A stretch of 64,000 nucleotides of DNA. Origin: Eledone cirrhosa. Its lineage: Eukaryota. The stretch lies in NCBI GenBank assembly GCA_964016885.1, contig OZ024745.1, positions 55,304,001 through 55,368,000 of the forward strand. The letters run 5' to 3'. A program made the position numbers and the translations under genes. Positions within the stretch are counted from its first letter, which is position 1. Each line of letters opens with the position of its first letter. Shown here in pieces: positions 15,849 through 57,913 of the stretch. The notes under the pieces were generated by a model. The model made no database searches. It was not told where the DNA came from and was given only the letters and a program-made list of their open reading frames with translations.

Positions 15849-15950
<102 letters not shown>

Positions 15951-16303
15951 AATAGAATGAAACCAAATTTCATTTCTCACTCTTAGTACGGCACTTACTT
16001 AAATGTATATACTTTCAAACGTTCAACCATCTGGCAGGAAGGTATACGATGCTGACGATAGCTAATAATCTTGAAACTAGTACATCGTTCCTGTGTCAGT
16101 GTTGAACAAAAAGGTGACGTGGTTGCCTAAACACTGTACGGCGTAATTCGGGCTGTTTGTTTGTTTACAAACAAACACACCGAGCATTATAATAAATGTT
16201 CGGTAAACCGATACGTGCATATATATATGTGTGCATGTATGTATATATATATACATACTACTGTACGTATGTATACATATATGTATGTACGTATACATAC
16301 ATA

Positions 16304-16308
<5 letters not shown>
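15951..16308 (+). mobile_element. Retrozyme-like family B copy with a short 5' inverted piece
   Basis: Homologous to the 30662-31280 unit; 15951-16006 is inverted relative to the rest. Confidence 0.7.
16046..16088 (+). ncRNA. Minimal type I hammerhead ribozyme
   Basis: ACGATG-CTGACGA-TAGCTAATAATCTT-GAAA-CTAG-TA-CATCGT: perfect 6-bp stem I. Confidence 0.75.
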
Positions 16309-16344
<36 letters not shown>

Positions 16345-28336: not shown

Positions 28337-30293
<1,957 letters not shown>

Positions 30294-30416
30294 TTCTACC
30301 TGGAGTTGCGACCGATAGATAGTTTTAGCAACTGGAAAGACCGACGAAAACATTGTTTCCTCGGTCCGATTTGAGGAAAGTCGATCGATCCTTTTTTTTT
30401 ATATATATATATATAT

Positions 30417-30532
30417 ATAAGTTGTAATATAATGAAACGAAATTTCATTTCTCACTCTTAGTACGGCACTTACTTAAATGTAAGTATGTATGTATACGTA
30501 CATACATATATGTATACAGACGTACAGTAGCA

Positions 30533-30568
<36 letters not shown>

Positions 30569-31274
30569 CAGGTACACATATATATATGTACCTATCACTT
30601 TAGCGGACGTTTATTATAACGCCCGCTTTGTCCGTTTGTAAACAAGCGGACAGCCTGATTTATCGTTCCTGTGTCAGTGTTGAACAAAAAGGTGACGTGG
30701 TTGCCTTAACACCGTATGGCATAAATCAGGCTGTACGCTTGTTTACAAACGGACAAACCGGGCGTTATAATAAACGTCCGCTAAACTGATACGTACATAT
30801 ATATATATATGTGTACCTGTATGTATATATATATATATATATATGCATGCTACTGTACGTCTGTATAGATATATGTATGTACGTATACATACATACTTAC
30901 ATTTAAGTAAGTGCCGTACTAAGAGTGAGAAATGAAATTTCGTTTCATTATATTACAACTTATCGTATTCGGTACGCCTGGCCGACTGAACTCACTCGAT
31001 ATGCAAATTTGGCTGCTCAGCCGTTAATTTTCATAAGGAAAGTATATACTTTCGAACGTTCAACTATCTGGAAGAAGGGTATACGTTGCTGATGATAGCT
31101 AAGAAGCTTGAAACTAGTACATCGTTCCTGTGTCAGTGTTGAACAAAAAGGTGACGTGGTTACCTTAACACCGTACGGCATAAATCAGGCTGTCCGATTG
31201 TTTACAAACGGACAAAGCAGGTGTTATAATAAACGTCCGCTAAACTGATACGTACATATATATATGTGTACCTG

Positions 31275-31280
<6 letters not shown>
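30417..31280 (+). mobile_element. Retrozyme-like element (family B): 5' inverted arm 30417-30663, a 459-nt monomer and a partial second monomer
   Basis: ATCGTTCCTGTGTCAG occurs at 30662 and 31121; 30417-30663 is the reverse complement of 30721-30963; no ORF. Confidence 0.8.
31083..31125 (+). ncRNA. Minimal type I hammerhead ribozyme at the monomer junction
   Basis: ACGTTG-CTGATGA-TAGCT-AAGA-AGCTT-GAAA-CTAG-TA-CATCGT; predicted cut after 31119. Confidence 0.8.
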
Positions 31281-39948: not shown

Positions 39949-42694
<2,746 letters not shown>

Positions 42695-42813: not shown

Positions 42814-42852
42814 TGAACAAGTACTTTCATGCTTTCGCAATCTTCAGGTTCA
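42814..42852 (-). ncRNA. 39-nt minimal hammerhead ribozyme
   Basis: Reverse complement of 42904-42942. Confidence 0.8.
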
Positions 42853-42903
42853 TGATATGTCGTGACAGTCGAGTTTGCAATTTTCAACTGTCACGACTTA
42901 TCA

Positions 42904-42942
42904 TGAACCTGAAGATTGCGAAAGCATGAAAGTACTTGTTCA
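42904..42942 (+). ncRNA. 39-nt minimal hammerhead ribozyme
   Basis: TGAAC-CTGAAGA-TTGC-GAAA-GCAT-GAAA-GTAC-TT-GTTCA. Confidence 0.85.
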
Positions 42943-48472: not shown

Positions 48473-48667
48473 AGATAAATCTACCAAGAGTTTACGGTAG
48501 TGTCCAATCCGTATGAAGAACTCAATGTAGTCCGGATATCATGGAAAGAAGAGATACAATGAAAAATCACTTTCGGTGAAAGATAAACGGAATACAGAGT
48601 CAAGATAAAATATTAAAAAAATAATGAATAAAACAATGAAACAGTTCCTTATATTAAACAAAAAAAG

Positions 48668-48822
48668 TTCATTATTTAACGATCGTTTCTAGGATATATA
48701 TGTGTTAGAATTGGCATGCATATTCAACAGATCTATGTACAAAATTATACAAAATTATACAAACTATCAAGATTAAATATACATACCAAACACACATATA
48801 TGCCGTCTTCAGAAATAATGAA
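48668..48822 (-). ncRNA. Type I hammerhead ribozyme
   Basis: Reverse complement of 56592-56746. Confidence 0.85.
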
Positions 48823-49426
48823 ATATATTTATTGATAATAACAACAATTCAAAATTTCAGGTCCGTTTGGGAACGGAGTTCAAATTGACCAATGAAAATA
48901 CAAAAAATTTTATGCAGTTTGGTGTGTGTATATACATGTAATTAACTTCGTACACATATTTATATAAAGATATATGCTCACATGCATACGCATGCCAAAA
49001 AGATGTATGCAAATACAAAAATTCAAGGCTAATGTCTCTGTAAGTTTATAATCCACAGATAAAATGCGTATAGACACATAAATATGAAATAAATGTATAC
49101 ACACATTCACATACTCACACATATTCGTACACTCACACACACACGCGCGTATATGCATAAACATACACATAATTACGAACATACATACACACAAACACCC
49201 CCAGACACATATATATGTGCATATAGCATTATCATAAGCATATGGACATTAATGCACGCACATAAACACTGCCACACACATTTAGATCAAGATACAGAAA
49301 TTAGGTGGGAGGGGGGGAGAGGTCAGTATTCAACGGTTTCGGCAGACTGCTTATTTATAGATGTATCTATAAACTTAGAAATAAAAAGAAAAGAAAAAGA
49401 AAAAAGAAAAAAGAAATATATCAAGA

Positions 49427-49470
<44 letters not shown>

Positions 49471-49892
49471 TATACATACAACACACACACACACACATAT
49501 ATAAACATATACATATATATATACACATATATACACACATACATATATATATACACACATATATACACATATATACACACACATATATACACACACATAT
49601 ATATATATACACGCACATATACATACACACACATATATATATATATATACAAACAAGCAAAATATAAAGTATACATCGATATACATACATATAGACATAT
49701 AAATAAATACACACGCATACACACACATACATATACATACATATACATACACATATATATAAACACATACATATACATACATATACATACACATACCATA
49801 TAAATACACATACACATACACAGCCGCATAGATATAGAGACACATACATATACACATATAAATACATAGACACATACATACATAAACACATT

Positions 49893-49952
<60 letters not shown>

Positions 49953-49974
49953 TACACACATATACACATACACG

Positions 49975-50022
<48 letters not shown>

Positions 50023-50162
50023 TATATATATATATATACATATATATATACATATATATATATACACACACATACATATACACACGCATATATATATATA
50101 TTTATATACATTCACAACACTCGTATATATATACACACACTCATACATATACACACATATAC

Positions 50163-50205
<43 letters not shown>

Positions 50206-50392
50206 CAAATATATATATACATATATATATATATACACATATATATACAGTCACATCTACATACATATATATATATATATAAAAATACACTCATATATAT
50301 ACACACATACACATACATACCCACATATAAATATATATATATACATAAATATATATACACATACACACGCACACACACACACACATACATAC

Positions 50393-50465
<73 letters not shown>

Positions 50466-50936
50466 CACACATACATACACATACATACACATATACACAC
50501 ATACATATATATTCACACACACACACCTACACATACATACACATACACATATATAAAGATATATATACACACATACACACACACCCATATATAATAAATA
50601 TATATATATATATATACATATATATACATATACATACATATATACATACATACATACACATACATACATATATATACACACATATACATACACACATACA
50701 CACATACATACATACACACACACATACATACACACACATACGTACTCATACATAGACATAGATATATATTCACACACACATACGCACTTACATATACGCA
50801 TATATACAAATACATACGCATCCATATATGCGTATATACATACAAACACCACTACACTCTCACACAACTCAGACATACAAAGAAAAAGGTATATACATAT
50901 ACACATATACACATATAAACAGAGATATATATACAC

Positions 50937-50975
<39 letters not shown>

Positions 50976-51795
50976 CAACCACATACATATACATACATAC
51001 ACATATACACACATACATATATAGTCACACACACACACCTACACATACATACATATATAATAAATATATATATATACATATAAATATATACATATATATA
51101 TATACATATACATACATATATACATACATATATACACATACATACATATATATACACAAATATATACACACATACACACATACATACATACACACACACA
51201 TACATACAAACACCACTACACTCTCACACAACTCAGACATACAAAGAAAAAGGTATATACATATACATATATACACACATAAATAGAGATACATATACAC
51301 ATATATATATATATATGCATACATATATATATATATATATACCCACACACACATACAACCATAAACACACATACAAACACATACATACACACATATATAC
51401 ATATATATACACACACACAAAGACACACATACACATATATATTTATATATATATATATATATATACACATTTTCACATATATATATATACACATAAATTA
51501 TATTATAATAATAAATAAATAATATATATATATACATATACAAATATATACATACATAGACATACATATATATACACACACACACACACTCACATATATA
51601 TGCGCGCATACGTACACATATACACATACACACATATACACATAAACATATACATGTGCATACATGTACATACACACATATACCCACATAGATACGAAGA
51701 TACACATATATATAGAGAGACATACATATACATACACATATATACACACACATACATACACACATATATATACACATACATACACGCACACACAC

Positions 51796-51853
<58 letters not shown>

Positions 51854-53062
51854 GCATATATATATATATATATACACACAATCATACATCCTTATTTGCA
51901 TGCGCATATATGTATTTTTATACTTAGATATAAACACCCAAACATATATACACCTACCTACATATATATTCATACATACACGCTTACAAATACAGATAAT
52001 AATAGTAGGGGGGAAGGGGGGGAAGGGGATTATAGTAAATATATGTTTCAAGAAACATAGAATATTAATCTGTATTTGGATCTCAATATGTGTTTACATA
52101 GTTTCAGTATTAGGAAATGCAAAATTATGCATTTCAATATAAGTATACCATTAATTATAGGTTAACTAAACTAAAGATAGTTAACGTATTGATTTCTAAG
52201 GTGTAAATTACTTAGGTTTATAATATTTGAAGCAGAATTTTGAAGTTAAATAGTAGTAGAGTATTAATTATAGTATAACTAAATTAAAATTATTAACGTT
52301 ATGGTATCAATATTAGGAAATGAATTTGGTAATAGGGAAAAAACAAATAAAGTATTACATCGGTAGTAGAATATAAATTATAGGTTAACTAAATTAAAAA
52401 TTATATATTAATTTCTATAGTATATGTTAATTAGGTATATAATAAATAAAACAGATATTGTATTTTATCAATAGCAGAATATAATTATATGTAAACAGAA
52501 ATCAAAACTAATACACATATATATATACATATACATACATATATATATATACACATATATATACATACATACACATACACATATATACATACATATACAT
52601 ATTTTTTCAAAAATTGCAAAGAATATATTAATTAGGTATACATCCAAAACACATCCCATTCTATGATTACATGACACTCTGCAATCCGTCTGTATTAGGA
52701 TACTAATTTTAAGCCAATAAATTAAATTTTTAGGTTGACTAAATTTAAAACCAAATTATAAATATATTTCTAAAATGTATATTAATTAGGTCTATAATAC
52801 TAAAAATTATTTCTCTGTCCTTGAATATACGATATTTTGTTATATTTTATCTGTAAAGGAATTTTAATAAAGGGTTAAATAAATTAAAATTAATCTATAA
52901 ATTAAATTACTAAGTATATATTAGTAATATTTAAAGGTTTTTCACAATTTATGATTACACAATATTTTATATTCTCATCTGTAGTAGAATTTTAATTAAA
53001 TTAAATTTATAGGTTAACTAACATTTAAATTAAATTATATATTAATTTCTAAAATAATGTTA

Positions 53063-53725
53063 TTAATTAGGTTTATAATATTTAAATGTTTTTTTTAGTT
53101 TATGATTACACGATATAATTAATTCCTGTCGTTTATTTAATAGGATATCATTAGATTTCATTATTTCAAATAGTTCTTGGGAACATAATCTACATTCATT
53201 TCTATTATTTTGATAAGGGGTGGCTCTTTTGAGCACACTCCAGGTCAAATCATATTCTATATTCTTATTTTTATAACTATTGATTTTTTCTGCTAGAGAT
53301 GTTGTATTAGCCAGTGCGGCATTTTTAAAACTATGCTTGTGGGTATTAAACCTTGTCTTAAAATTGTTAGAAGTAGCTCCTATATATGAGCAAATAGAAT
53401 CTTTAGTTTTAACATTACATTTATAGACTATGTTGTTAACAAGACAATTCCCTTTTAATGGGCAGTTTGCTTTGTTTCTACAGTTACAACCTTTCGTTAA
53501 TTCTGTATTTGAGGAGATATTATGGTTAGTTTGATGTATTGGTGGTATACTTATGGTTTTCTTACATTTATATGCATTATAGGCACTTATATTTTGTTTT
53601 ATGTTATTTGTTGTTGAGTATGAGAATTTAACTGTAGACCTATTTAAGATTTGATGGTATTTGTGGTTTGGCGGGAAGTTTTTCTCTAGGATATAAAAAC
53701 ATTTTTTAGCAATATTATCCTTAAT
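53063..53725 (-). CDS. Open-frame C-terminal ~220 aa of a PLE protein (thumb end, Zn linker, GIY-YIG); 5'-truncated
   Basis: My translation: FPPNHKYHQILNRSTVKFSYST...GCNCRNKANCPLKGNCL..IVYKC..SYIGATS..FKTRFNTH...CRLCSQE..LLNKRQE..SCNH; no stop seen. Confidence 0.8.
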   Translation of the reverse strand: MKDNIAKKCFYILEKNFPPNHKYHQILNRSTVKFSYSTTNNIKQNISAYNAYKCKKTISIPPIHQTNHNISSNTELTKGCNCRNKANCPLKGNCLVNNIVYKCNVKTKDSICSYIGATSNNFKTRFNTHKHSFKNAALANTTSLAEKINSYKNKNIEYDLTWSVLKRATPYQNNRNECRLCSQELFEIMKSNDILLNKRQELIISCNHKLKKTFKYYKPN

Positions 53726-54453
53726 TTGTATATGTATATATATATATTATTTATTTATTATTATAAAATAATTTATGTGTATATATATATGTGTGAAAAT
53801 GTGTATATATATATATATATATATATAAATATATATGTGTATGTGTGTCTTTGTGTGTGTGTATATATATGTATATATGTGTGTATGTATGTGTTTGTAT
53901 GTGTGTTTATGATTGTATGTGTGTGTGGGTATATATATATATATGTATGTATATATATATATATATGTGTATATGTATCTCTATTTATGTGTGTATATAT
54001 GTATATGTATATACCTTTTTCTTTGTATGTCTGAGTTGTGTGAGAGTGTAGTGGTGTTTGTATGTATATACGCATATATGGATGCGTATATATTTGTATA
54101 TATACGTATATGTAAGTGCGTATGTGTGTGTGAATATATATCTATGTCTATGTATGAGTGTGTATGTGTGTGTATGTATGTGTGTGTGGATGTATGTATG
54201 TGTGTATGTGTGTATATATTTGTGTATATATATGTATGTATGTGTATATATGTATGTATATATGTATGTATATGTATATATATATATGTATATATTTATA
54301 TGTATATATATATATTTATTATATATGTATGTGTGTGTATGTGTGTATTATATATCTTTATATATGTGTATGTGTATGTATGTGTAGGTGTGTGTGTGTG
54401 ACTATATATGTATGTGTGTATATGTGTATGTATGTATATGTATGTGGGTGTAC

Positions 54454-54517
<64 letters not shown>

Positions 54518-54992
54518 GTGTATATATATCTCTGTTTATATGTGTATATGTGTATATGTATATACCTTTTTCTTTGTATGTCTGAGTTGTGTGAGAGTGT
54601 AGTGGTGTTTGTATGTATATACGCATATATGGATGCGTATGTATTTGTATATATGCGTATATGTAAGTGCGTATGTGTGTGTGAATATATATCTATGTCT
54701 ATGTATGAGTATGTATGTGTGTGTATGTATGTGTGTGTGTATGTATGTATGTGTGTATGTGTGTATGTATATGTGTGTATATATATGTATGTATGTGTAT
54801 GTATGTATGTATATATGTATGTATATGTATATATATGTATATATATATATATATATATATTTATTATATATGGGTGTGTGTGTATGTGTGTATATATATC
54901 TTTATATATGTGTATGTGTATGTATGTGTAGGTGTGTGTGTGTGAATATATATGTATGTGTGTATATGTGTATGTATGTGTATGTATGTGTG

Positions 54993-55065
<73 letters not shown>

Positions 55066-55222
55066 GTATGTATGTGTGTGTGTGTGTGCGTGTGTATGTG
55101 TATATATATTTATGTATATATATATATTTATATGTGGGTATGTATGTGTATGTGTGTATATATATGAGTGTATTTATATATATATATATATATGTATGTA
55201 GATGTGACTGTATATATATGTG

Positions 55223-55291
<69 letters not shown>

Positions 55292-55431
55292 ATGTATATG
55301 TGTGTATATGTATGAGTGTGTGTATATATATACGAGTGTTGTGAATGTATATAAATATATATATATATGCGTGTGTATATGTATGTGTGTGTATATATAT
55401 ATATGTATATATATATGTATATATATATATA

Positions 55432-55464
<33 letters not shown>

Positions 55465-55945
55465 GTATGTATGCGTGTATGTGTATATGTGTGTAAAAAA
55501 AAATATATATATATATAAGAATGTGTTTATGTATGTATGTGTCTATGTATTTATATGTGTATATGTATGTGTCTCTATATCTATGCGGCTGTGTATGTGT
55601 ATGTGTATTTATATGGTATGTGTATGTATATGTATGTATATGTATGTGTTTATATATATGTGTATGTATATGTATGTATATGTATGTTTGTGTATGCGTG
55701 TGTATTTATTTATATGTCTATATGTATGTATATCGATGTATACTTTATATTTTGCTTGTTTGTATATATATATATATATATATGTGTGTGTATGTATATG
55801 TGCGTGTATATATATATATGTGTGTGTATATATGTGTGTGTATATATGTGTATATATGTGTGTATATATATATGTATGTGTGTATATATGTGTATATATA
55901 TATGTATATGTTTATATATGTGTGTGTGTGTGTGTTGTATGTATA

Positions 55946-55987
<42 letters not shown>

Positions 55988-56591
55988 TCTTGATATATTT
56001 CTTTTTTCTTTTTTCTTTTTCTTTTCTTTTTATTTCTAAGTTTATAGATACATCTATAAATAAGCAGTCTGCCGAAACCGTTGAATACTGACCTCTCCCC
56101 CCCTCCCACCTAATTTCTGTGTCTTGATCTAAATGTGTGTGGCAGTGTTTATGTGCGTGCATTAATGTCCATATGCTTATGATAATGCTATATGCACATA
56201 TATATGTGTGTGGGGGTGTGTGTGTGTATGTATGTTCGTAATTATGTGTATGTTTATGCATATACGCGCGTGTGTGTGTGAGTGTACGAATATGTGTGAG
56301 TATGTGAATGTGTGTATACATTTATTTCATATTTATGTGTCTATACGCATTTTATCTGTGGATTATAAACTTACAGAGACATTAGCCTTGAATTTTTGTA
56401 TTTGCATACATCTTTTTGGCATGCGTATGCATGTGAGCATATATCTTTATATAAATATGTGTACGAAGTTAATTACATGTATATACACACACCAAACTGC
56501 ATAAAATTTTTTGTATTTTCATTGGTCAATTTGAACTCCGTTCCCAAACGGACCTTAAATTTTGAATTGTTGTTATTATCAATAAATATAT

Positions 56592-56746
56592 TTCATTATT
56601 TCTGAAGACGGCATATATGTGTGTTTGGTATGTATATTTAATCTTGATAGTTTGTATAATTTTGTATAATTTTGTACATAGATCTGTTGAATATGCATGC
56701 CAATTCTAACACATATATATCCTAGAAACGATCGTTAAATAATGAA
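56592..56746 (+). ncRNA. Type I hammerhead ribozyme, 10-bp stem I
   Basis: TTCATTATTT-CTGAAGA-[CATATATGTGT...ACACATATAT]-GAAA-CGATCG-TT-AAATAATGAA. Confidence 0.85.
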
Positions 56747-56800
56747 CTTTTTTTGTTTAATATAAGGAACTGTTTCATTGTTTTATTCATTATTTTTTTA

Positions 56801-56972
<172 letters not shown>

Positions 56973-57639: not shown

Positions 57640-57734
<95 letters not shown>

Positions 57735-57735
<1 letters not shown>

Positions 57736-57878
57736 GTACATATATATAAGTGTGCATGTATGTATATATATATATACATACTACTGTACGTCTGTATACA
57801 TATATGTATGTACGTATACATACTTATATTTAAGTATCAGCCGTTCTAAGAGTGAGAAATGAAATTTCATTTCATTCT
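57735..57878 (+). mobile_element. Fragment of family B
   Basis: Matches ~30790-30948. Confidence 0.7.
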
Positions 57879-57913
57879 TTTCTCTCTATATATATATACA
57901 TATATATATACAA

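Follow-up and report, generated by a model that had tools for sequence, protein, structure and literature searches.

The question raised by this locus is whether a short, non-coding repeat that appears to begin at the cut site of its own ribozyme was copied from a self-cleaved RNA, and by what kind of enzyme. The sequence-only reading proposed a retrozyme-like monomer starting at its own cut site, with a self-cleaved, possibly circular RNA copied by the reverse transcriptase (RT) of a Penelope-like element (PLE). The window, meaning the whole 64-kb stretch of DNA that was analyzed, is contig C5:55304001-55368000 of a microsatellite-rich 3.0-Gb genome. Unit positions are numbered from +1 = 31120, the first base after the predicted cut. 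The focal element, and two further copies of the family in the window, comprise the following features, some of them also found in a second (sister) family of the same genome:

30401..30419, no strand: (TA)n target run on the left of the element, from the sequence and from family 3' ends, which run into (TA)n
30417..30663, minus strand: inverted arm, the reverse complement of unit +61 to +303 by sequence comparison
30662..30663, no strand: head-to-head junction with a 2-nt overlap (AT), the forward arm starting from +2
30662..31119, plus strand: forward unit, 459-nt period, 36% GC
About 30796-30902, plus strand: TA-rich tract inside the forward unit
30895..30905, plus strand: first recurrent 3'-end site (..CATACTTA), unit +239 to +245, putative RT start (89/285 3' ends)
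30931..30949, plus strand: hairpin AATGAAA-loop-TTTCATT, directly before the second 3'-end site
30957..30963, plus strand: second recurrent 3'-end site (..CAACTTAT), unit +303, putative RT start (122/285 3' ends)
31001..31008, plus strand: ATGCAAAT word, within the 12-nt longest exact word common to both families
31083..31125, plus strand: minimal type I hammerhead, predicted cut after 31119
31120..31280, plus strand: partial second unit, ending within its own TA tract (a class with 28/285 family 3' ends)
15948..16313, plus strand: second copy, with a short inverted arm (15948-16007), ending at the first 3'-end site
57721..57908, plus strand: third copy, short, 5' truncated, and without a hammerhead; match limits take in flanking TA

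The inverted arm proposed at 30417-30663 was recovered as described, as were the 459-nt period and a forward start at 30662 close to the cut (match to the postcut sequence from +2). The arm had been read as a fusion at the 5' end of the element; its presence was upheld, but its reading as 5' decoration was not. The outer end of the arm (30417) is the commonest 3' end of the family and one of two fixed 3' ends, and the arm is therefore a second primed cDNA. At the other side, the end of the second unit merges with the target (TA)n, which reaches about 31340. No ORF of at least 150 amino acids was found over the focal element, in agreement with the earlier statement that it has none, and ARAGORN found no tRNA gene in the 64-kb window. 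A short stretch upstream of the focal element (window 30180-30300) is presumably SINE-like. The copy proposed at 57735-57878 was found within the slightly wider limits listed above. The one proposed at 15951-16308 was likewise found, with a forward arm that runs from about -80 (some 80 nt upstream of the cut) through the hammerhead; this hammerhead had been called intact, but one stem II pair is broken (C.U instead of C-G at 16069).

The hammerhead proposed at 31083-31125, with predicted cleavage after A31119, was confirmed by its core and stems. The core CTGATGA (31089-31095) is followed by GAAAC-TA-GTA. Stem II is AGC/GCT with a U.U closing pair, stem I contains a U.U mismatch at 31086 (G.U or A-U in the majority of copies), and stem III consists of 2 bp and a 2-nt loop that together form the palindrome ACTAGT/ACUAGU (31113-31118). 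Compared to Rfam, the focal hammerhead had no match at the gathering score and a weak match below it (HH9, 17.3 bits, E = 0.31); the ribozyme call is based on core and covariation, not on this score. Among 13 natural variants from the focal and sister families, which are kin and whose covariation stems mostly from the single split between the two families, the core was invariant except at its free position, both partners were altered in 7 of 13 hammerhead pairs, and 90.5% of cells were paired (versus 19 to 46% in slid controls). These compensatory changes in the predicted stems support, but do not prove, a conserved ribozyme. The energy fold of the monomer does not form the hammerhead (z = +0.72), and stem III is unable to close in the monomer. 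Two ACUAGU palindromes pair in a duplex of -6.8 kcal/mol, and circular folds gave z values of -5.3 and -11.0 (versus 40 shuffles). Cleavage is predicted to take place in a dimer, by analogy with axolotl retrozymes as described in PMC7229834; eight of nine Xenopus retrozyme dimers are reported as uncleaved in vitro (10.64898/2026.07.22.740005).

The 31-mer just past the cut had 13,307 exact genomic matches. Copies occur singly, as partial tandems, head-to-head, and in long arrays, with tandems of 2 to 76 units. The array at C2:60.57-60.61 Mb contains 76 full units, is 4 to 5% heterogeneous, and has no ORF of at least 120 amino acids in the 10 kb scanned. A candidate coding element between C2 hammerhead matches 4 kb apart was rejected, as it consisted of variant units of a plain array. 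The sister family has a unit of 466 to 469 nt without a TA tract, and up to 11,154 places matched its ribozyme pattern, some of them being variants of the focal family. The two families share identical words (12, 11, and 11 nt) near the 3'-end region and the GAAACTAGT core, and an 11-nt word of the hairpin at 30931..30949 is also present in the sister family. The shared word ATGCAAAT may represent a putative promoter octamer or an RT-binding element. Sister-family loci (C1:5.73-5.76 Mb, 30.83-30.84 Mb, and 56.385-56.398 Mb) include head-to-head arrays of up to 10 + 10 full units. Identical sister-family arrays were found on four contigs or loci, some of them unlinked, so this family is very young. 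In a pattern search for third families, the first 100 of 3,594 places comprised 95 of a sister subfamily and 5 of a focal-word variant. Two irregularities were seen among the arrays. At C1:56.387-56.392 Mb (L385), one variant is confined to the minus arm, where units 0, 1, 3, 4, 6, and 7 have it; this periodicity of 3 may reflect a trimeric template or later expansion. Four loci (L275, L276, L279, and L284) have the same inversion junction, +8/+67 with 4 nt of overlap, which may be due to a microhomology hotspot or to copying of the structure.

With a type I hammerhead in each unit, short tandems, no coding capacity, and a GC content of 36% (below 50%), the focal repeat is very probably a previously undescribed member of the animal non-LTR retrozymes. 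The titles and abstracts of openly accessible papers contained no description of the focal family or of head-to-head retrozyme anatomy; the family may already be present in some repeat library. As characterized in PMC7229834 and 10.64898/2026.07.22.740005, animal retrozymes are likewise short non-coding tandems with a type I hammerhead, low GC content, thousands of copies, a self-paired predicted circle, and co-occurring PLEs. The unit (457 to >500 nt) is slightly longer than the 150 to 450 bp quoted there, and fixed internal 3' ends and head-to-head arrays are not among the features described in the passages compared (the main text of PMC7229834 has 0 occurrences of "inverted"). RNA circles have been seen for animal retrozymes. 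For the focal family, no homologous pLTR was found in the two PLE families compared. Axolotl and newt repeats share its short stem III and are reported to cleave as dimers. Newt satellite 2, also a tandem hammerhead repeat with a short stem III, has a reported snRNA-type promoter (PMC2220036); the focal family, for its part, conserves the ATGCAAAT word, for which a promoter role is putative.

Whether copies start at the cut site was examined across the genome. At 150 loci, each genome position being used once, 130 5' starts could be assigned to unit positions that are resolvable; those within the TA tract are unplaceable and were not counted. Between -211 and +8, 3 of 95 starts, including that of the focal copy, fell at -3 to +5 (P = 0.68). 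In a walk along the first 55.7 Mb of contig C1, the corresponding count was 1 of 61 (P = 0.90). In the same walk, 122 segments crossed the cut, versus 2 that started within 5 nt of it. A genome-wide junction pattern gave 20 matches at +1/+2 and 24 at the control position +8/+9, with equal baselines (103 and 101 of 109). After inspection by eye, by which 7 of the 20 test matches and 2 of the 24 control matches were dropped as indel variants of intact ribozymes, 13 true junctions remained at the cut versus 22 at the control (P = 0.18), in a test whose patterns require two nonmatching letters and so miss some junctions, the focal one included, and in which 4 control matches represent one common junction. 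For the sister family, 1 of 35 starts lay within 5 nt of the cut, in a sample biased by the picking of loci by ribozyme. On these counts of starts and junctions, a cut-site start was rejected as a family rule: copy starts plotted against the cut showed no excess there in either family, and 5' starts are scattered over the unit, an outcome that the sequence-only reading had itself named as refuting. Since other copies start anywhere in the unit, the focal start beside the cut looks like chance; the junction at +2 is a chance one.

The fixed ends of the family are its 3' ends. Resolved 3' ends (n = 285) were distributed among +240 to +256 (89), +285 to +308 (122), the TA tract (28), and other positions (46), so that two internal sites, separated by about 60 nt, account for 211 of the ends, which run into (TA)n. 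The true first 3' end is at about +239 (..CATACTTA), and the range from +285 to +308 is a single site, blurred by subfamily indels, whose ends mostly enter (TA)n. This second site (+303) lies 157 nt ahead of the next cut, and 20 of 22 sister-family 3' ends were at the matching site. Among insertions in the C1 walk, 36 of 70 were head-to-head and 0 were tail-to-tail only. Both outer ends were at fixed sites in 57 of 87 head-to-head insertions, and 36 of 57 head-to-head junctions overlapped by 0 to 5 nt.

Partial tandems, 5' truncation, inverted 5'-truncated copies, fixed internal 3' ends, and a (TA)n target are all features of PLE insertions. The anatomy of the element and its copies thus supports the earlier description of a non-coding, tandem, hammerhead-bearing, Penelope-style non-autonomous element, one that is likely mobilized by a Penelope-like RT, with internal priming and with read-through of the cut. 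Non-autonomous Chlamys elements such as MRC1, together with Naiad/Neptune insertions, as presented in PMC8557442, share multicopy head-to-tail insertions, an inverted 5'-truncated copy, and a microsatellite target that masks target duplications; they have a helper-like 3' end and no canonical hammerhead, whereas the focal family has a hammerhead and no matched helper. The Poseidon PLE of Anolis is reported to nick AT-rich DNA, extend both strands, and start at two internal sites (PMC11167929). It resembles the focal family in having two RT starts downstream of the hammerhead, an AT-rich target, and no ends at the cut, and differs in its 30- to 40-bp tail, compared to sites about 60 nt apart and no ORF in the focal family. 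For the anole PLE, the same source reports that ribozyme cleavage is unneeded for insertion in vitro and that no reads begin at the cut.

Mobilization of animal retrozymes by PLEs via circular RNA is a published hypothesis based on co-occurrence and sequence kinship (PMC7229834; 10.64898/2026.07.22.740005). The reading preferred here, with a probability of roughly 0.6, is that the focal family is a high-copy, non-coding PLE parasite whose RNA is cut to unit length, circularized, and copied by a borrowed PLE RT. Tandem copies would be transcribed, two cores would pair via the ACUAGU palindrome and then cut, and a host ligase would close the monomer into a circle. The GIY-YIG endonuclease of the helper would nick (TA)n DNA, and the RT would begin at an internal site beside the hairpin and pass the ligated cut site, for anything from a fraction of a turn to many turns. 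It would often work on both DNA strands, the two cDNAs being joined head-to-head via overlaps of 0 to 5 nt.

Segments that read through the cut indicate a template with an intact cut site, which would be either a ligated circle or an uncleaved multimer. Of the self-cleaved, possibly circular template proposed initially, the linear cleaved monomer is contradicted by the random 5' starts and the circle is not. A circular RNA template is considered probable, an assessment that leans on PMC7229834, in which retrozymes of coral, mussel, and axolotl were shown to form circles. In the insertion at C2:44.95 Mb, 8 units over both arms are identical across 353 nt, with TA tracts that differ in length, and their haplotype was matched by no other scored copy (40 of 3,204 candidates scored, at this one locus). 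Such an apparently private haplotype, present in every unit of the two arms, suggests that the sequence passed through a single unit. In a sister-family insertion, 18 of 18 units were identical across both arms; when the haplotype test was applied to a sister array, identical units were found at three other places, so that haplotype is not private. For 52 head-to-head insertions, arms differed by 3.4% on average, versus 2.4% to the nearest other copy, and rare variants common to both arms were found in 12 of 52 insertions compared to 5 of 49 controls (P = 0.07). At less than even odds, the insertions are a direct genomic trace of rolling-circle reverse transcription, in which a Penelope-like enzyme copies a circular RNA at both strands of one (TA)n site. 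Two cDNAs would be initiated at the same internal hairpin of a single circle, each would extend outwards through as many as about ten turns or more, and the two would be joined head-to-head.

An unlikely alternative, and the one that survives best, is that the family is a PLE parasite whose template is the uncleaved multimeric transcript of an array, with the hammerhead acting rarely or at another step. Cut-site read-through and fixed 3' ends fit it equally well, homogeneous young donor arrays would likewise yield identical units, stem III cannot close in the monomer, and the anole PLE is reported to use uncleaved RNA in vitro (PMC11167929). Some arrays contain periodic variants, a sign of either multimer templates or expansion at the DNA level after insertion. 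Against an uncleaved template, compensatory changes maintain the ribozyme stems in both families, an apparently private haplotype fills both arms at C2:44.95 Mb, and circles are observed for related animal retrozymes (PMC7229834).

It is improbable that the unit is no more than a terminal repeat belonging to a long, coding PLE and was later expanded as a satellite by DNA-level events. Such an origin is proposed for vertebrate retrozymes in 10.64898/2026.07.22.740005, and the heterogeneity of the 76-unit array and the periodic variants elsewhere point to DNA-level expansion after insertion. The dispersed multiunit insertions with a fixed 3' end on both sides, and the identical arrays on unlinked contigs, argue against it, as does the finding that none of 40 copies picked by 3' end alone had a PLE ORF fused upstream; one of the 40 had an ORF about 500 nt away, past a TA run. 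No ORFs of an autonomous PLE (RT or GIY-YIG) were found on the unit, in the 10 kb of array scanned, or fused to those 40 copies, and the ends of two PLE families had none in common with the unit (60 loci and 6 longer stretches compared). Both families are represented in the window, the first as follows:

48605-56809: very young PLE family, with an ORF remnant at 53063-53746 on the minus strand

At all 150 scored loci, this family showed 98 to 99% amino acid identity, with an 830-amino-acid frame (L211:1116-3608) whose protein was assigned GIY-YIG and HTH_animal clusters by Atlas; Pfam at threshold gave nothing in four PLE frames. The terminal repeat of the young family (window 48.6-48.8 kb) appears hammerhead-like by eye: stem I has 10 bp, stem II contains an insert of about 120 nt, and stem III is palindromic. 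The second family (window 40818-41360; L213-L216) encodes an RT followed by a GIY-YIG-like domain in open frames of at most 1,304 amino acids and has a CTGACGA-stem-GAAA core near its TA junction. Further CTGANGA..GAAA cores in the window (42847-42941, 43408, 24016, and 36254) are probably terminal repeats of other PLE families. Joins between the retrozyme and PLEs were also seen. An apparent chimera (L143) was rejected, as it is a later PLE insertion into the TA tract of a unit whose remainder lies beyond. At L052/L285 (L285:1836-1945), the 5' end of the retrozyme is head-to-head with a truncated PLE frame without a TA run; no unit remainder was found in this single case, which is possibly a mixed insertion that would name the helper. 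The joins at L107 and L255 are ambiguous.

Mobilization by something other than a PLE, such as a LINE or a DNA rolling-circle element, is very improbable. The search found no helper, and LINE twin priming also yields inversions. The units have no poly(A) or simple-repeat 3' tail of their own, and their internal 3' ends, partial tandems, (TA)n target, and inverted 5'-truncated copies follow the PLE pattern described in PMC8557442; PLE families of the same genome also end in (TA)n. Least probable of all is a linear self-cleaved monomer from which the RT runs off the 5' end at the cut, as the +2 start of the focal copy would suggest, because the starts and junctions of both families counted above oppose it and only near-perfect template jumping at the cut would hide the signal.

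The class of element was already known, and the cut-site start that drew attention to this copy is chance. The insertion anatomy of two very abundant families bears the PLE signature of internal fixed starts and priming on both strands, and the likely RT start sites are mapped to the base, which supports PLE mobilization and makes it testable in vitro. If the rolling-circle reading is true, then, with an active sister family and intact 830-amino-acid PLE frames, the retrozyme-PLE circular RNA pathway would be directly testable.
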